A DNA stretch of 64,000 nucleotides from Trueperaceae bacterium (GTDB lineage Bacteria; Deinococcota; Deinococci; Deinococcales; Trueperaceae): positions 192,001 through 256,000 of the forward strand of contig JAXHNB010000005.1 of NCBI GenBank assembly GCA_034520945.1, in the 5' to 3' direction. Within the stretch, counting starts at the first letter, position 1; every line of letters begins with the position of its first letter. The notes under the pieces are model-generated. The model was not told the DNA's origin, searched no databases, and saw nothing but the letters and a program-made list of their open reading frames with translations. This document shows positions 32,778-39,780 of the stretch, piece after piece. The translations under genes were made by a program, and so were the position numbers.

Positions 32778-33341
32778 TCAGCGAATGCCGGGCGGAACCT
32801 GCGTCGGGGGCGGCTCGGGCAGGCCCTCGGGCATGGGAACCCCCTCGAGGCGCTTCATCATGCCGTTCTCGTTGCACCCGACGAAGAAGGGGCAGCGCAG
32901 GCACTCCGACCACACGCGAGGGTGCAGGTTCTTGGTCTTGTCGATCAGGTGGAACCCGCAGCGCTCGAAGAAGCCGACCTCGTACGTCCATGCGAACAAC
33001 AACGGAATGCCGACCCGCCGGGCCTCCTCCTCGCAGGCGGCCACCAGCGCCCGCCCCACCCCCTTGGCCTCCACGTCCGGCGCCACCGCCAAGCCCCGAA
33101 CCTCGGCGATGTCGCCCCACAGGACGTGCAGCGCCCCGTTGCCCGCGAACGCGACGCTGCCGTCCGGCCGTTCCACCTCGGCCACGAAGAAGTCGCGGAG
33201 GTTCTCGAAGATGTCCTGCGTGGGTCGCACCAGCATGCGGGACTGCCGCGCCCAGTAGCCGATGTTCTCGAAGATGCGCGGCACGTCGGAGGCGCGGGCG
33301 TGCCGGACGTGCACGGACGCGGCCGCCTCGGGCGTGCTCAC
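32778..33341 (-). CDS. GNAT N-acetyltransferase, short ArgA-like N-acetylglutamate synthase
   Basis: IFENLRDFFV, AEVRGLAV, WSECLRCP..GCNE; coupled to argH. Confidence 0.82.
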   Translation of the reverse strand: MSTPEAAASVHVRHARASDVPRIFENIGYWARQSRMLVRPTQDIFENLRDFFVAEVERPDGSVAFAGNGALHVLWGDIAEVRGLAVAPDVEAKGVGRALVAACEEEARRVGIPLLFAWTYEVGFFERCGFHLIDKTKNLHPRVWSECLRCPFFVGCNENGMMKRLEGVPMPEGLPEPPPTQVPPGIR

Positions 33342-34750
33342 CGCGGGTCCTCCCCCTCGGGCGCCTCCTCCGCCAGCGCCCCCTGCAGCGCGTCGATGCG
33401 TTCCCGCACGCGCACCTGGGCCGTGCCGCCGTAGCTGGTGCGGCCGGCCACCACCTGCTCCAGGGCCAGCGCGCCATACACGTCGGCTTCGATGGCGTCG
33501 TCGACGGCGCGCATCGTCTCGAGCGGCAGCGCCTCCAGCGAGACGCCGCGCTCCAGCGCGGTCCGCACCAGCCGCCCGACCCGCTCGTGCGCCTCGCGGA
33601 ACGGCCGGCCCTTGCGGACCAGGTAGTCCGCCAGGTCGGTGGCGTTGGCGTAGGCCTCGGCCGCCGCCGCGCGCATCCGTTCGGCGTTCACCTGGGTCCG
33701 GGGCAGCATGTCGGCCTGCAGCGTCAGGCAGGCCCGCAGGGTGGCCACCGCGTCGAACACCCCCTCCTTGTCCTCCTGCATGTCCTTGTTGTACGCCAGC
33801 GGCAGGCCCTTCATCACGGTCAACGACGCCATCAACGCGCCGTACACGCGGCCGGTCTTGCCGCGGATCAGCTCGCTGACGTCGGGGTTCTTCTTCTGCG
33901 GCATGATGGAGCTTCCCGTGGTGTGGCTGTCGGGCAGCGTCACGAAGCCGAACTCCTGCGTCGACCACAAAATCAGTTCCTCCGACATGCGCGACAGGTG
34001 CATCATGCACAGGCTGGCCGCCGCCAGGAACTCGATCGCGAAGTCGCGGTCGCTGACGGCGTCCATCGAGTTGTCCGCCGGCCGCGCGAAGCCCAGCAGC
34101 GCCGCGGTGCGGTGGCGGTCGATGGGAAAGGTGGTGCCGGCCAGCGCACCCGCGCCCAGCGGGCTGACGTTCATGCGGGCCAGCCCGTCGCGCAGGCGCC
34201 CCTCGTCGCGCGCCAGCATCTCCTGCCAGGCCAGCACGTGATGCGAGAACAACACCGGTTGGGCGACCTGCAGGTGCGTGTAGCCCGGCATCACCACGCC
34301 CAGGTGCGCCTCGGCGAGGTCGACCAGCACGCGGCGCAGCGCGCGGAGCAGGCGCAGCAGGACCCGGACGTGCCGCCGCAGCCACATCCGGAAGTCGGTC
34401 GCGACCTGGTCGTTGCGGCTGCGGGCGGTGTGCAGGCGCCCCCCGACCGGTCCGATGCGCTGTGTCAACGCCGCCTCGAGGTTCATGTGCACGTCCTCCA
34501 GCGCAAGCTGCCAGTCGAAGGTTCCCGCCTCGACCTCGCCGCGCAGGTCACGAAGGCCCGCGATCAGCGCCGCGGCGTCCTCCTCCGGCACGATGCCCTG
34601 CTCGCCCAGCATGCGGGCGTGCGCCTCCGATCCGCTCAGGTCGTCCAGCGCCAGCTCGCGGTCGACGTCGATCGAGGCGTTGAACGCCTGCACCATTAGG
34701 TCGGTGTCGCCTGTGAACCGACCGCCCCACATCCGCTTGGCGGCGTTCAT
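33338..34750 (-). CDS. argH: Argininosuccinate lyase
   Basis: WGGRF, RSRNDQVATD, PGYTHLQ, GSSIMPQKKNPD. Confidence 0.97.
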   Translation of the reverse strand: MNAAKRMWGGRFTGDTDLMVQAFNASIDVDRELALDDLSGSEAHARMLGEQGIVPEEDAAALIAGLRDLRGEVEAGTFDWQLALEDVHMNLEAALTQRIGPVGGRLHTARSRNDQVATDFRMWLRRHVRVLLRLLRALRRVLVDLAEAHLGVVMPGYTHLQVAQPVLFSHHVLAWQEMLARDEGRLRDGLARMNVSPLGAGALAGTTFPIDRHRTAALLGFARPADNSMDAVSDRDFAIEFLAAASLCMMHLSRMSEELILWSTQEFGFVTLPDSHTTGSSIMPQKKNPDVSELIRGKTGRVYGALMASLTVMKGLPLAYNKDMQEDKEGVFDAVATLRACLTLQADMLPRTQVNAERMRAAAAEAYANATDLADYLVRKGRPFREAHERVGRLVRTALERGVSLEALPLETMRAVDDAIEADVYGALALEQVVAGRTSYGGTAQVRVRERIDALQGALAEEAPEGEDPR

Positions 34751-35271
34751 GGCGCGGTGCTCGGCTGACGCTGCCAGGTGCCGCCGACGCGCTTGTGCAG
34801 CTCCACGCCGGCGCCGTCACGGCCGACCTCGCGGTAGCCCAGCCGCTGGTAGTAGGGCAGCAGCGCCTCCTGGGCGCGGGGGAGCGTCAGCGACAGCGAC
34901 TGCACGTTGCGCTTGATCGCCAACGCCTCGACCTTGGTCATCAACCAGCGGCCGAACCCCTGCCCCCGCGCTTCCGGGAGGGTGGCGATGGGGTCGACGC
35001 GCCATCCGCTGCCGCTGCCCGCCCAGCGCCAGCGGAGACCGCACAGCGCGCGGCCCTGGGCGTCCTCCAGCACCAGGGCGCCGCCGTGCTCCAGCCAGCC
35101 CTGCATGGTCTCGGTCGTGTCCGGAACGTCGTCGCCGCTCGCCTCGTCGGCGCAGGCCTCACGCCACAAGCGCGCCAGGCGTTCGGCGTCGCCCTGGCTG
35201 GCCCAGCGGAGCCGGGCGGCCTCGTAGGCGCGGTTGGAGCCGAGTTCCGCCGGGTCCGCCACCGTGCTCAC
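34747..35271 (-). CDS. GNAT family N-acetyltransferase
   Basis: [16 protein letters not shown]; coupled between argG and argH. Confidence 0.85.
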
Positions 35272-36494
35272 GCCCCGTCTGGGCCTTGTGGCCCCTCAGC
35301 CGCCTGCCGGGCGATGCGGAGCCGCAACGCGTTCAGCTTGATGAACCCCTCCGCGTCGCCCTGGTGGTAGACGTCGTCCTCCTCGAAGGTGACGACGTCG
35401 CGCCGGTAGAGGCTGTTCGGGCTCTTGCGCCCCGTGATCATGAGCGAGCCCTTGAACAGCTTCAGGCGCGCCGTTCCGTTGACGGGTCGCTGCACGTCGT
35501 CCATCAGGTTCTGGAGCGCTTCGCGCTCGGGCGCGTACCAGAAGCCGTCGTACACGCACTGCGCGTAGCGTGGGATCAGCTCGTCGCGCATCTCGAGCAC
35601 CTTGCGGTCCAGCGTGATCTGCTCGACGGCCTTGTGGGCGTGGTAGAGCAGCGTCCCGCCGGGCGTCTCGTAACACCCGCGCGACTTCATGCCGACGAAG
35701 CGGTTCTCGACGATGTCGACCCGCCCCACGCCGTGCGCGCCGGCCAACTCGTTGGCGCGGGTCAGCAACGCGACCGGGTCCAGGCGTTCGCCGTCGATGG
35801 CGACGGGATCGCCGTGCTCGAAGGTGACCTCGACGCTGCGCGGCGTGTCCGGCGCCTGCTCCGGGCTGGCGGTGCGGTCCCACATCTCGGCGGGGGGCTC
35901 GTGCCAGGGATCCTCCAGGACGCCGCCCTCGTAGCTGACATGGAACAGGTTGGCGTCCATCGAGAACGGCTTCTCCTTGGTGGCCGACACCGGGATGCCG
36001 TGCGCTTCGGCGTAGGCGATGCAGTCCTCGCGGCCCTTCAGGTCCCACTCGCGCCACGGGGCGATCACCCGAATGTCGGGCGCCAGCGCGTAGGCGGACA
36101 TCTCGAAGCGCACCTGGTCGTTGCCCTTGCCCGTCGCGCCGTGCGCGATGGCGTCCGCGCCCTCCTCTCGCGCGATCTCGACCATCTTGCGGGCGATCAG
36201 GGGCCGCGCGAAGCTGGTGCCGAGAAGGTAGTACCCCTCGTAGATGGCGCCGGCGCGCAGGACGGGGAACACGAACTCGCGGACGAAGGCGTCTTTGAGG
36301 TCGACGGCGTAGGCGTGCGAGGCGCCGGTCGCCAACGCCTTGCGTTCGGCCTCGGCCACCTCCTCGCCCTGGCCGACGTCGGCGGTGAAGGCGATCACCT
36401 CGGCGCCGTAGGTCTCCTTGATCCAGGCGAGGATGACGGAGGTATCCAGCCCGCCGGAGTAGGCGAGCACCACCTTGCGAACGTCGCGGGTCAT
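35268..36494 (-). CDS. argG: Argininosuccinate synthase
   Basis: [44 protein letters not shown]. Confidence 0.97.
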
Positions 36495-36577
36495 TGGGGC
36501 CTCCTCGGGGTCCGAAGAACGACCCACGCCACGGTCGCACCGCGACACGCCGAATCTCCGCCCGCTCGGAGCGGGGG

Positions 36578-36622
36578 TCAGCGGCGTCGGGCGCGGCGTG
36601 TGGTGTGGGTGTGGTGGGTCAT
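36578..36622 (-). CDS. Candidate argG leader peptide [14 protein letters not shown]
   Basis: ATG ACC CAC CAC ACC CAC ACC ACA CGC CGC GCC CGA CGC CGC TGA; 5 Arg in the last 6 codons, 83 nt upstream of argG. Confidence 0.7.
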
Positions 36623-36633
36623 GGGGATACGCC

Positions 36634-36655
36634 ACGTTGCATGGGTATGCAACGT
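36634..36655. promoter_or_regulatory. Candidate ARG box (ArgR operator)
   Basis: ACGTTGCAT-GGGT-ATGCAACGT perfect palindrome with TGCAT-N4-ATGCA core; extended -10 TGCTAGATT on minus at 36681-36673. Confidence 0.65.
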
Positions 36656-36697
36656 AGGCGATGACGCCCAGCAATCTAGCACCCCCCGCAGGTGCGG

Positions 36698-37603
36698 TCA
36701 AGCGTCCGGCGCGGTCGGCGCCGGCGGCAGCGTGCGCCGCGGGCGCCACCCCGACAGGGCGGCGCAGCACAACACCACGGCGGCGCCGGCGAGGCCCAGC
36801 GCGCCCATGCGCTCCCCGAAGGCGGCCCAGGCGACGGCGCCGGCCACCACCGGTTCGACCGTGGCCACCAGCACCGCGCGCGACGCGGTCGCGCGCCGCA
36901 GACCGAGGCCGTACAGGAGGTAGGCCAGGTAGGTGGACACCAGCGCCGCGCCCGCCAACAAAAGCCAGGCCTGCGGCGGTTTGGCGCCCCACGGCACGAA
37001 CGGGGCGATGCCGATCGCCCCCAGCGGCAGGGCCACGCCGTACAGCTGGACCGGCGGCTGCCGCGCCAGCAGGCGTTTGCCCAGCAGGTAGTAGCTGGCG
37101 TACCCGAACCCCGCCGCCAACCCCCAGGCGATCGCGGCCGGCGTCGGGGTGACCCCCTCGCCCTGCGCGAACGACACCAGCGCTACGCCCGACATGACGC
37201 CGGCGGTGAGGGCCCACTGCAACGCCGTGGGCCGTTCCCCCAGGATCGGGCCGGAGGTGAGGGTCACCCAGGCGGGCGCCGTGTACAGCAACACGAACGC
37301 CAGGCTGATGCCGCCCGCGTCGATGGCGCGGATCAACGCGACGTAGAACAGGCTCACCCCGATCACCGCGAACGCTGCGGTGCCCACGGCGTGGGCGGGG
37401 GGGACGGGGCGGAGGCGTCGCGCGACGAGGGCATGCGCGGCGAAGGCCGATCCGCCGAGGAGCGCCCGCCAGAAGGCGATCTCGGTCGCGGCCACCCCCA
37501 ACGCCAGCAGTCCGGCCGAAAACGCGCCCAACAGGCCCCACAACACGGCGGCCGCCGCGACCAGCACCAGGCCGCCCAGCTCGCCGCCGGGCGCGTCGCT
37601 CAC
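36698..37603 (-). CDS. EamA/DMT family transporter
   Basis: Many TM helices, [23 protein letters not shown]. Confidence 0.9.
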
Positions 37604-39780
37604 GCCTCAGGGTCGCGCGGGGGCAGCTCCAGCCCGTACGAACGGGCGAGGTCCGGCTTTTCCTCCCGCAGGGCGCGCATGCGCCGTCGGTAATTCGCCG
37701 CCTCGACGGCGAAGCCGGCGGCGTTCAGCACCAGGATCGTCGCCAGGATCCAGACCTCCGTGCGCATCCCCAGCCCCAACGCGCCGGGCGCGCCGGCCCA
37801 CTGCCGGGCCACGTCGCCGGCCAGGATCGACCCGGGCACCAGAAGCAGCAGCCCCCACAGCTCGTCCAGGTGCCCGCTTCCGGGCACCAGCAACGCCAGC
37901 ACGTGGTAGGCGGGGGTGCGGGGCGCCCGCTTGGAGACGCGTGGCCTGGGGATCAGCAGGTTGACCGTTAGCGCGACGAACAGCGTGGCGCAGGCGGCCA
38001 GGAACGCCCACCAGGCGGGGGGTGGCACGCCGGCGGGGCGTGCCTGGGCCGAGCTGCGCCACGGCGCCGTGAAGGCACCGCTTAGCGCGTCGCGCCAGTC
38101 GCCGGCCGCCGCCAGGGCGAAGGCGTACGGCGTCGGCACGGCCAGCAAAGGGTCGTCCTGGAGGTAGCGTTCATGGAACGGCGACGGGTTCGCGGCCTCG
38201 GACAGGTGATGGCGGACCACGAGGTCGCGCGGGTCCGCCTCCAGCGCGGCCGTGAGCAGCGACGCGTCCCCCGTGAGCACCGCCCGGTTGACGAGGGCCG
38301 GCGCGATCTCGCCCGCGCGCGCCAGTTCACGCAGCGCCGCCTCCTCCTCGCCGCGCATCGCCAGGGAGGTGCCGCGCGCGAAGGCGGCGTACGGGGTGTC
38401 GGGGAAGGCCTCCACCGCGTCCACGGCCGGGACGCTGGCCAGGGTCCCGGACGCCAGCGCCGGGGGCAGGTCCTCGCCCCGGTCGGCCCAACCGCCCAGC
38501 ACGGCCATCAGGCCGGCCAGCGCCAGCACCACCAACAGCGCCAGCTTCTCGGGCGTGCCCAGGTGGCGTGGCACCCAGGCGCGCGCCAGGGCGGGGGTGG
38601 ACTGTCCCCGTTCGCGGCGTTGCTTGCGCGCCAGCGTCTGGGCGCGCCACACCTTGGCCAGCAGGGTGAGCCACGCCAGCAGAAGGCCGGCGCCTAGGGC
38701 GGCGGCGCCGCCGTGCCCGAAGCGGCCCAGCGACAGCGCCGCCTGGTCCACCCAGGTCGACATGCCGGCACGCTCGAAGGCGCGGGCGCGCTCACGCCAG
38801 ACGGCGGCCGCTTCGCGGTCGCCGCGTTCGCGCAGCAGGTCCGCGAACGCCTCGAGTTCGTCCACGGTGCCGGGGGCCGCTTGGGCGGTGAGGCGCCAGG
38901 CGTACGGCGCCAGGATGCGGGCGGTCCCCAGATCGCCGTCCGCGACCGCCCGGCCGAAGGCCGCGAAGCCGTACGCGGCGCGCAGCGCGGGATCGGTCGC
39001 CAGCCGCGGATCGTAGTCGCGTGCGGCGAAGTCGGACAGCGCCGCTTCCATCGCGTCTGCCGCCGCCCCTTCGTGCCCCTCTTGGGCCAGGGCCGCCCCG
39101 AGGCCGAACGATTCGAAGAACGGCAACGCCGCGGCGGCGTCCACGGCGTCGTCCCGCAAGGCCTCGGCCTCCTCCGGGTCGCCGGCGCTGCGCGACGCCG
39201 CCAGCGCCAACCACGGGTCCGTGGGGTCGCGCGCCCACGCCGTCGCGGCGTCTTCCGCCTCGGCCGCACCTTTGCGCAGCTGATCGAACGTCCGGGGGTC
39301 GGTTCCGAAGCGGACCGGCGCGGCGGGACCGTCGGCCCCGATCGGGAGCGTTTCGGAGCGGCCCGTGGCGTGCACGACCTCGACGACGAGGCCGTCGTCG
39401 CCGCGGCGCAGGGCCTCCGCAGCCGCGGGCAGCGCCGCGCGCCGCCGCACCTCGCCCGTGGCGGCGTCCAGGAAGACGAGGTACGTCCCATGCGCCACGA
39501 CCACCTGATCATCGCGGCGGACCGGCGCCAGCGCCTCGACGCCGGCGGGGCGAAGGGCGACCCGCCATGCCTCCTCGCCGTCCCGCTGCGCCACGACGCT
39601 GGACGATGCGGCGTCCCAGGAGACCTGCAGCGCCGGCGCGTCCTCGTCCCCCGCCGCGGGCGCTTCGGGCGGCGCTTGCGCCGGCACGAGGCCGCAGCAG
39701 GCCACGACGGTCACGACGAGGAACGCGCGCACGAACCGGGCGCGGCGCGTACGCGGATCGGGATCGGACGTCCACAGCAT
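37600..39780 (-). CDS. Large membrane protein with extracytoplasmic beta-rich and helical domains, function unknown
   Basis: Signal peptide, several TM segments, ALLVPGSG motif; TAGGTT -10 six nt before ATG. Confidence 0.7.

Follow-up and report, generated by a model that had tools for sequence, protein, structure and literature searches.

We found an arginine-rich mini-open reading frame (mini-ORF), embedded in a conserved RNA stem, directly upstream of the argininosuccinate synthase gene argG in a Trueperaceae bacterium of the phylum Deinococcota. The locus lies in a stretch of 64,000 nucleotides (hereafter the window) of GenBank assembly GCA_034520945.1 (contig JAXHNB010000005.1, positions 192,001 to 256,000 of the forward strand), and all coordinates given here count from the first letter of this window. 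We consider it fairly likely, with ample room for doubt, that the 5' leader of the argG-GNAT-argH operon is a ribosome-mediated arginine attenuator, probably one acting on transcription. Judged by sequence comparison, the mini-ORF and its stem can be taken as a real, conserved cis-regulatory leader of argG. Because the ORF is conserved in frame and embedded in covarying helices, an Arg-codon-sensing leader peptide appears to be its best reading. The genome under study is metagenome-assembled and has 3.47 Mb with a GC content of 71%.

The leader mini-ORF and its arginine codons

An initial annotation of the window had pointed out a 14-codon, Arg-rich ORF at 36622-36578, with a CGA among its codons, ending 83 nt before argG, and the sequence bears this out. 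The mini-ORF occupies 36578-36622 on the minus strand and consists of 14 codons and a TGA stop (ATG ACC CAC CAC ACC CAC ACC ACA CGC CGC GCC CGA CGC CGC TGA), the stop standing 83 nt 5' of the argG ATG. Five of the last six codons specify Arg. These sensor codons, CGC CGC GCC CGA CGC CGC (R-R-A-R-R-R), span 36581-36598 of the minus strand, with the CGA at 36589-36587.

We then looked at the tRNAs available for these codons. ARAGORN reports tRNA-Arg genes with the anticodons ACG (one gene), CCG (two genes), TCT and CCT, and finds no tRNA-Arg(UCG) gene in the genome. Given this tRNA-Arg set, the single tRNA-Arg(ACG) gene reads all five Arg codons of the leader. The two tRNA-Arg(CCG) calls differ in length (94 and 77 nt), and the 94-nt call may be false or contain an insertion. 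Of the Arg codons in 876 long ORFs of the genome with high GC at third codon positions, 4.4% are CGA. Decoding of CGA by inosine-adenosine wobble is slow.

In its own genome alone, the mini-ORF would not stand clearly beyond chance at 71% GC. The pattern CGN-GCN-CGA-CG followed by an early in-frame stop occurs at 25 sites genome-wide, two of which have an in-frame ATG within 50 codons upstream. It is the conservation in relatives that raises the mini-ORF above chance. A pattern search and a covariance model both give a single copy of the element in this genome. Two look-alikes (C1:126499 and C6:617490) were rejected as second copies, as neither has an Arg-run ORF or an arg gene.

Conservation of the mini-ORF in relatives

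We took argG loci from 40 relatives and read 30 of them. Of the 30 relatives, 20 have, within the 200 nt before argG, an ATG-initiated ORF of 6-22 codons whose last seven residues include an Arg cluster; a search of the reverse complement of the identical stretches gives 2 of 30. This is the kind of conservation that the initial annotation had suggested looking for. In most relatives the Arg cluster takes the form R-A-R-R, and the N-terminal residues vary freely. Among the loci of the bacterium's own family, the Trueperaceae, 18 of 23 carry the ORF. The mini-ORF is kept in genomes with 37% and 47% GC (L023 and L024), and GC content therefore fails as an explanation; this answers a caveat attached to the first description, namely that Arg codons are common in GC-rich DNA.

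An alignment of 19 leaders picked by peptide pattern shows the ATG and the string CG.GC.CGACG to be invariant. We also collected 35 distinct ORF sequences by selecting for CGA, so that the constancy of CGA in this second set is circular. These ORFs are 12-16 codons long and end in TGA (22), TAA (9) or TAG (4), and the codon of their conserved Ala is GCC in 20, GCT in 9 and GCA in 2. The invariant start, the open frame and the interchangeable stops match the expectation for a translated ORF. The A of the CGA is invariant in the 19-leader alignment, yet it is paired in just 11 of 30 structurally aligned sequences; therefore, selection on CGA seems to act through codon identity rather than base pairing.

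Shorter forms, recognised by eye only, are found in other families of the order. In genus g16 of a sister family (f2), which appears to be Deinococcus-like, 26 of 29 genomes have an ORF upstream of argG that ends in CGA-CGY with a stop within two codons. These ORFs are 8-10 codons long (18 in two genomes), as exemplified by MQTLTSRR, and in 25 of 27 of the g16 leaders the ORF can form at least eight pairs with RNA downstream of it, enclosing a strong hairpin that follows the stop. Mini-ORFs of family f5 end in TRRPA or TRQRS, and family f3 has MKRRARRLH and one ORF ending in EERRPQ. No such ORF was found in the four loci read from the Thermus-like family f4. In one f5 locus (L073, genome G036), TGA replaces the conserved CGA and the mini-ORF stops before the Arg codons; as far as the sequence tells, this is a possible natural loss-of-sensor variant.

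A pattern scan of bacterial contigs gave at least 125 matches at at least 119 loci. Among the matches listed, five have an ORF in the frame of the CGA: four are Trueperaceae/Deinococcales records and one is a Lachnospiraceae metagenome-assembled genome. This last locus (L184, from a Firmicutes genome with 44% GC) has a 12-codon ORF, MYFYVQRRRNEK, with CGA CGT CGC upstream of argG, and it may represent an unrelated arginine leader. The many Chloroflexia matches (within L078-L168) were rejected, since they are C-terminal coding sequence of an upstream argR-like gene and not leaders. In Chloroflexia, the gene upstream of argG ends with ...GDNTLIVLFPDEP..., which resembles the C-terminus of ArgR. 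Because this gene end stands at a fixed distance from argG, many such chance matches arise.

The mini-ORF as one half of a covarying stem

The leader of the genome under study folds with -60.8 kcal/mol (z = -3.53), and none of 200 shuffled sequences folds as well. Single-sequence folds of the leaders share an architecture of three helices, P1, P2 and P3, in which the mini-ORF is the 5' half of the stem and P1 reaches from the first half of the ORF to a G-rich strand downstream. On the minus strand of the window, P1 pairs ACCCACAC (36603-36610), lying within codons 5-7 of the mini-ORF, with GCGUGGGU (36522-36529), lying directly before a U-rich tract. P2 (36540-36590) joins the region of the Arg codons and the stop (36590-36577) to 36554-36540 and encloses the P3 hairpin, which follows closely on the stop and pairs 36574-36569 with 36563-36558. 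The initial annotation had proposed two pairings, which can indeed be formed: AUGACCCAC (36622-36614) with GUGGGUCGU (36527-36519) gives nine pairs, one of them G-U, and ACACGCCG (36601-36594) with CGGCGUGU (36552-36545) gives eight Watson-Crick pairs. It had placed the long-range helix on the ATG-proximal copy of ACCCAC. The register supported by comparison puts P1 on the second copy, at 36610-36603.

RNAalifold recovered P1, P2 and P3 (27 pairs) from five sequences. When 14 leaders were aligned with plain MAFFT, only five pairs were predicted and no covariation was seen, and the structure emerged only via the five-sequence subset and a model-based realignment. A first covariance model found eight further leaders of the family (E-values from 1.6e-9 to 0.023), and for a second seed (model R2) seven leaders with E < 0.01 were added. 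In the resulting 30 model-aligned sequences, 81.5% of the cells hold standard pairs, as compared with 34-45% when the 3' partners are slid. Changes on both sides of a pair are seen at 15 of the 27 pairs (3-8 when slid) and in 60 cells (5-14 when slid). The pairs have a covariation score of 0.227 (at most 0.057 in the slid controls), which none of 500 shuffles attains. Compensatory changes affect six of the eight pairs of P1 and five of the six pairs of P3, whose cells are paired in 93.4% of cases.

Model R2 is specific to argG. It matches 46 of 128 family genomes (a lower bound, as the filters were stricter) and 17 of 36 genera, with a single match per genome except for one genome with two. 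Of the best 30 matches, 29 immediately precede argG and the remaining one is cut by the end of its contig. In a phylum-wide sample, R2 matches 5 of 12 genomes of the own family plus the genome under study; outside the family, it gives one match among 82 genomes of f2 (weak and not at argG) and none among the 48 and 8 genomes of two further families. An Rfam cmscan of 35000-38000 with E-values up to 10 returned only two chance microRNA matches elsewhere in that stretch.

R2 misses variant leaders, for example L010, L011, L018, L022 and L024. Two of these, L010 and L011, come from the same genus as the genome under study and are without P1. In place of P1, a strong local hairpin, GGCGGGUGCCCC...GGGGCACCCGCC, immediately precedes their Shine-Dalgarno (SD) sequence; a U tract is missing, and CCGCC with GGCGG is a possible 2:3 alternative in them. 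By their predicted structures, these leaders are the same mini-ORF wired differently.

Transcription termination or release of the SD sequence

We then considered how a ribosome on the mini-ORF might control argG. The U-rich tract UCGUUCUUC (36514-36522, minus strand), with five U in nine nucleotides, is a candidate termination point after the stem. The initial annotation had seen no terminator with a U tract; a simple consensus scan does flag a terminator-like site at 36549-36525 of the minus strand with the tail GGTCGTTCTT. Such a scan finds three terminator-like sites in 20 kb, and shuffled sequences give 4.5. Across 35 relatives, the 12 nt that follow P1 and precede the SD have a mean U fraction of 0.42, as compared with 0.14 in the remainder of the leader and 0.17 in the locus, and 33 of the 35 have a tract U-richer than that remainder. 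Clean U runs, such as UUUCUUUUU, UUUUUUU and UUUAUUUUUUU, occur in several of them.

The mechanism proposed at first was a translational attenuator. In that scheme, the leader is transcribed at full length, a stalled ribosome frees GGGUC to pair with GACCC, and the SD is released so that argG is translated. The parts that it calls for exist. A local hairpin at 36501-36519 of the minus strand, formed by UUCUUCGG (36519-36512), the loop ACC and CCGAGGAG (36508-36501), covers most of the argG SD (GAGGAGG, 36506-36500), and the competing pairing of GGGUC (36525-36521) with GACCC (36512-36508) is available. The U tract is weak in the own genus, and a strong stem situated so near the SD, at a distance of a few nucleotides, might impede binding of the 30S subunit.

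To model the stall, a 28-nt ribosome footprint was imposed with the A site on CGA and the unpaired probability of the SD was computed, on thermodynamic grounds only. The SD of the genome under study is mostly paired in the free state (0.07 unpaired), but it stays paired under the footprint (0.14), and its hairpin is retained in all three minimum-free-energy folds of the stalled state. Across the 35 relatives, the mean accessibility of the SD is 0.39 free and 0.43 stalled; it rises in seven, falls in three and is unchanged in 25. In many relatives the SD is open already in the free state (up to 0.73). The relatives as a whole do not share the SD hairpin. The conserved U-rich tract and the non-conserved SD hairpin favour transcription attenuation, and the folding models suggest that control is more likely by transcription termination than by SD release. 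Of the original proposal that stalling at Arg codons activates argG translation, the conserved Arg-codon leader is supported and the translational SD switch is not; we regard the latter as unlikely, yet as the most serious of the competing explanations.

Whichever of the Arg codons occupies the A site, the ribosome covers the 5' strands of both P1 and P2. The constrained folds lose the long stem, with -68.5 kcal/mol in the free state and -47 to -53 kcal/mol in the stalled state. The alternative hairpins in the stalled-state folds differ between lineages, and no conserved antiterminator helix emerged. Going by these models, the ribosome footprint alone may be sufficient as an antiterminator.

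For the transcription attenuator that we favour, we propose the following sequence of events. Transcription starting at a promoter near 36666 would pass an ArgR-box-like palindrome and then the mini-ORF. When charged tRNA-Arg(ICG) is plentiful, the ribosome would complete the mini-ORF and depart, the stem would close behind the polymerase, and transcription would end at the U-rich tract. When charged tRNA-Arg(ICG) is scarce, the ribosome would stall on the Arg codons and, with its footprint over the 5' side of P1 and P2, keep the stem from forming, so that transcription would proceed into argG. ArgR would provide a second control, at initiation.

Several observations weigh against this mechanism. 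The U tract of the genome under study is weak, as it is interrupted by C and G, and no run of four U occurs in this GC-rich genus. Its own stalled-state folds keep hairpins that end near the U tract, namely the one at 36549-36525 and the pairing of AUGACCCAC with GUGGGUCGU. By eye, the element is absent from 5 of the 23 family loci (L003, which belongs to the same genus, and L015, L016, L019 and L021). The relatives are non-independent samples, and the structural alignment was fitted to the model, which biases the pairing counts upward. The initial annotation had also cautioned that the small ORF has no clear SD, and we find no consistent SD before either this mini-ORF or those of the relatives; it is conservation alone that speaks for their translation. 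Nor is the mini-ORF leaderless by prediction, as about 43 nt of 5' untranslated region would precede it.

Alternative explanations for the conserved leader

The leader might instead be a structured non-coding element, for example one that binds a protein, acts like a riboswitch or stabilises the mRNA, and the ORF would then be incidental. The covarying helices and the lack of a consistent SD would suit such an element, and the C-rich 5' strands encode Thr, His and Pro automatically. On the other hand, the ATG is invariant, the frame stays open over 12-16 codons with three different stop codons used at one place, and only the Arg codons are conserved across families whose leader RNAs differ. 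Moreover, an ORF in the CGA frame is seen in 5 of at least 125 bacterial pattern matches, four of them from the own order, and the leader has no Rfam match. We consider this explanation improbable.

Marginally less probable still is arrest by the nascent peptide, in which the C-terminal R-A-R-R would act in the exit tunnel or at termination and sense free arginine instead of tRNA charging. The conserved residues do stand at the stop or within three codons of it in every lineage, and the Ala is kept while the third base of its codon varies. However, with a ribosome held at the stop codon in high arginine, the stem would stay open and argG expression would rise, a response of the wrong sign. In the sister family R-R alone is retained, the length and the N-terminus of the peptide are variable, and the G and C of the Ala codon belong to P2, so that RNA pairing can explain their conservation.

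A chance ORF in GC-rich DNA, with argG under ArgR alone via the palindrome, is highly improbable: Arg codons are common at 71% GC, the genome has 25 R-A-R-R-plus-stop motifs, and an argR gene and an operator-like palindrome are present, but the ORF persists at 37% and 47% GC, occurs in 20 of 30 forward stretches against 2 of 30 reverse complements, and keeps its CGA invariant.

Promoter, probable ArgR-type control and the argG operon

We then investigated the region upstream of the mini-ORF. A consensus scan finds a sigma-70-type promoter, TTGACC-17 nt-TAGATT with a TG extension, at 36673-36701 of the minus strand. The predicted transcription start (~36666) is about 43 nt upstream of the mini-ORF. 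Two promoter-like sites occur in 20 kb, the argG promoter among them. The pattern TTGAC-N18-20-TANNNT is found at an equal distance in 33 of 35 relatives, the promoter ending about 50 nt before the ATG. A gene for an EamA-type transporter lies upstream, its stop codon (36700-36698) overlapping with the -35 hexamer.

Just downstream of the -10 element and before the mini-ORF is a perfect 9-bp inverted repeat, ACGTTGCAT-ACCC-ATGCAACGT (36634-36655, minus strand). This repeat (36655-36634) looks like an ARG box, the palindromic operator of about 18 bp that overlaps promoters or start sites of arg genes, and we take it as a candidate ArgR operator. A TGCAT..TGCA palindrome stands at the corresponding place in 17 of 35 relatives under a strict pattern, and the genome has an argR gene (PF01316, 78.5 bits). 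The strict palindrome TGCAY-N4-WTGCA occurs four times in the genome, and two other occurrences that were inspected adjoin unrelated genes (hydrolase, SnoaL, nitrilase), and the fourth stands at the beginning of contig C5; a looser search gives 14 genomic sites. The upstream regions of argF and argJ in this genome have neither the box nor an Arg-run ORF, which leaves the operator unconfirmed through other arg genes. ArgR control probably coexists with the leader element, because a consensus promoter and an ARG-box-like palindrome lie upstream of it. The notion that the leader replaces ArgR does not hold, given the argR gene and the position of the palindrome between the promoter and the ORF.

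The argG gene (35268-36494, minus strand, with its ATG start codon at 36494) matches Pfam PF00764 and PF20979 as well as NCBIfam NF001770 (619 bits, cut-off 334). It is followed on the same strand by a GNAT acetyltransferase gene (34747-35271, 174 aa) and by argH (33338-34750; TIGR00838, 627 bits), the third gene of the operon. The GNAT gene overlaps each of its neighbours by 4 nt. Generic GNAT models are the sole matches of its product in a family profile search; as a guess from gene position alone, it could be a short N-acetylglutamate synthase. The EamA-type transporter gene is the upstream neighbour and ends at 36698 of the minus strand.

Implications for the control of arginine synthesis

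Leader-peptide attenuation is textbook knowledge for Trp, His, Leu, Thr, Phe and Ile/Val. For arginine synthesis the textbooks give ArgR, in what is the standard repressor-only case. A conserved Arg-codon leader of argG across an order would put arginine on the attenuation list, and this order appears to include Deinococcus, which is culturable. If the proposed mechanism is true, argG would integrate two signals, with ArgR reporting free arginine and the ribosome reporting charged tRNA-Arg, and would be a case of a repressor and an attenuator on one gene. As a natural sensor of tRNA-Arg charging, the leader would also be compact, with no more than eight codons in the shortest form of the sister family. 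The invariant CGA offers a testable point, namely how a single slow-decoded codon can set the sensitivity of such a switch. Mini-genes of this kind are overlooked by genome annotation.

It is also conceivable, and we suggest it tentatively, that arginine synthesis in many phyla is under leader-peptide attenuators at argG that evolved independently. In this broader picture, the Deinococcota sensor would be one invariant CGA, read by inosine-adenosine wobble within three codons of the stop, with the ribosome itself as the antiterminator and an ArgR operator as a further layer of control.

Comparison with known systems

We searched the literature on arginine leader peptides, arg-gene attenuation and Deinococcus leader peptides and found no such element for arginine biosynthesis; the initial annotation, which knew of none described for argG in this phylum, agrees with the literature searched, which holds no arginine leader peptide for arg genes.

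The classical attenuators are trpL, hisL, leuL, thrL, pheL and ilvL. Like them, the argG leader has a short ORF ahead of a biosynthetic operon, rich in cognate codons and overlapping an RNA structure, and a hairpin with a U-rich tract before the first gene, and it would follow the same logic of stalling and read-through. Unlike them, it concerns arginine and has no sequence or Rfam relation to them. The mini-ORF itself is the 5' strand of the terminator-like stem, so that the ribosome may antiterminate directly; no conserved separate 2:3 helix and no consistent SD are seen, and a repressor-type operator is added.

The fungal arginine attenuator peptide (AAP; arg-2/CPA1) has about 24 conserved residues and stalls the ribosome at termination in high arginine. 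As in the argG leader, an upstream ORF precedes an arginine-biosynthesis gene, and here too it would respond to arginine. In contrast to this eukaryotic system, the mini-ORFs have 12-16 codons, a variable N-terminus and presumably a logic of Arg-codon hunger. Full-length conservation of the AAP type is absent: the last two to five residues are conserved, and the length is 8-16 codons (18 in two genomes).

Within the same phylum, de Groot et al. (2014, PMC4007540) proposed that 14 leaderless leader peptides of D. deserti act by attenuation, and the trp attenuation mechanism is summarised in the same paper. In the accessible part of that paper, the genes concerned are tyrS, thrS, trpS2, trpEGD, metG, aspS, leuC, leuS, asd, cysS, ilvBH, leuA, DAHP synthase and pheST, without argG. 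Those peptides are likewise rich in the cognate residue and stand before amino-acid biosynthesis or tRNA-ligase genes. According to the same text (PMC4007540), their transcripts start at the ATG or 1 nt before it, whereas the predicted start in our case is about 43 nt upstream. A transcription start at the leader ATG is not what the promoter models give for the relatives, as the promoter lies about 50 nt before the ATG in 33 of 35. The accessible data list transcription starts at +1 and -152 for argG of D. deserti, and the -152 start is not flagged there as 5'-ATG (PMC4007540); it could fit a long leader able to hold an 8-codon ORF. The +1 start is leaderless, and a -10-like motif, GAGAAT, overlaps the would-be SD in that excerpt (PMC4007540). 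In relatives from genus g16, GGAGAGAAT likewise stands before argG. The attenuator might thus be bypassed by an internal promoter.

Two bacterial leaders are described as sensing arginine. In the Salmonella speF leader (Ben-Zvi et al. 2019, PMC6386406), low arginine leads to pausing at consecutive Arg codons of orf34, which alters leader folding and gene expression. As far as the excerpted text goes, this system differs from ours in that it serves polyamine synthesis, involves Rho, SD unfolding and RNase G, and has 34 codons of unrelated sequence (PMC6386406). In S. aureus, the small leader peptide rbfL detects a shortage of arginine by way of rare Arg codons and a scarce tRNA (Kohl et al. 2026, PMC13009471). 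In the portion of the report consulted, the stalled ribosome blocks the downstream ribosome-binding site, so that starvation represses the target, which is a regulator of biofilm formation, and AGA/AGG serve as the codons (PMC13009471). On these partial sources, neither the speF nor the rbf element controls arginine synthesis.

The cysS uORFC-8-2 motif of Rhodobacterales, read by its authors as ribosome-mediated attenuation (Brewer et al. 2021, PMC8632094), differs in amino acid, gene and clade and has no sequence relation to the argG leader in the part of the source available. Like the argG leader, this motif (PMC8632094, same part) was found by comparative genomics and has an upstream ORF with tandem cognate codons in its first stem, followed by a terminal U run.

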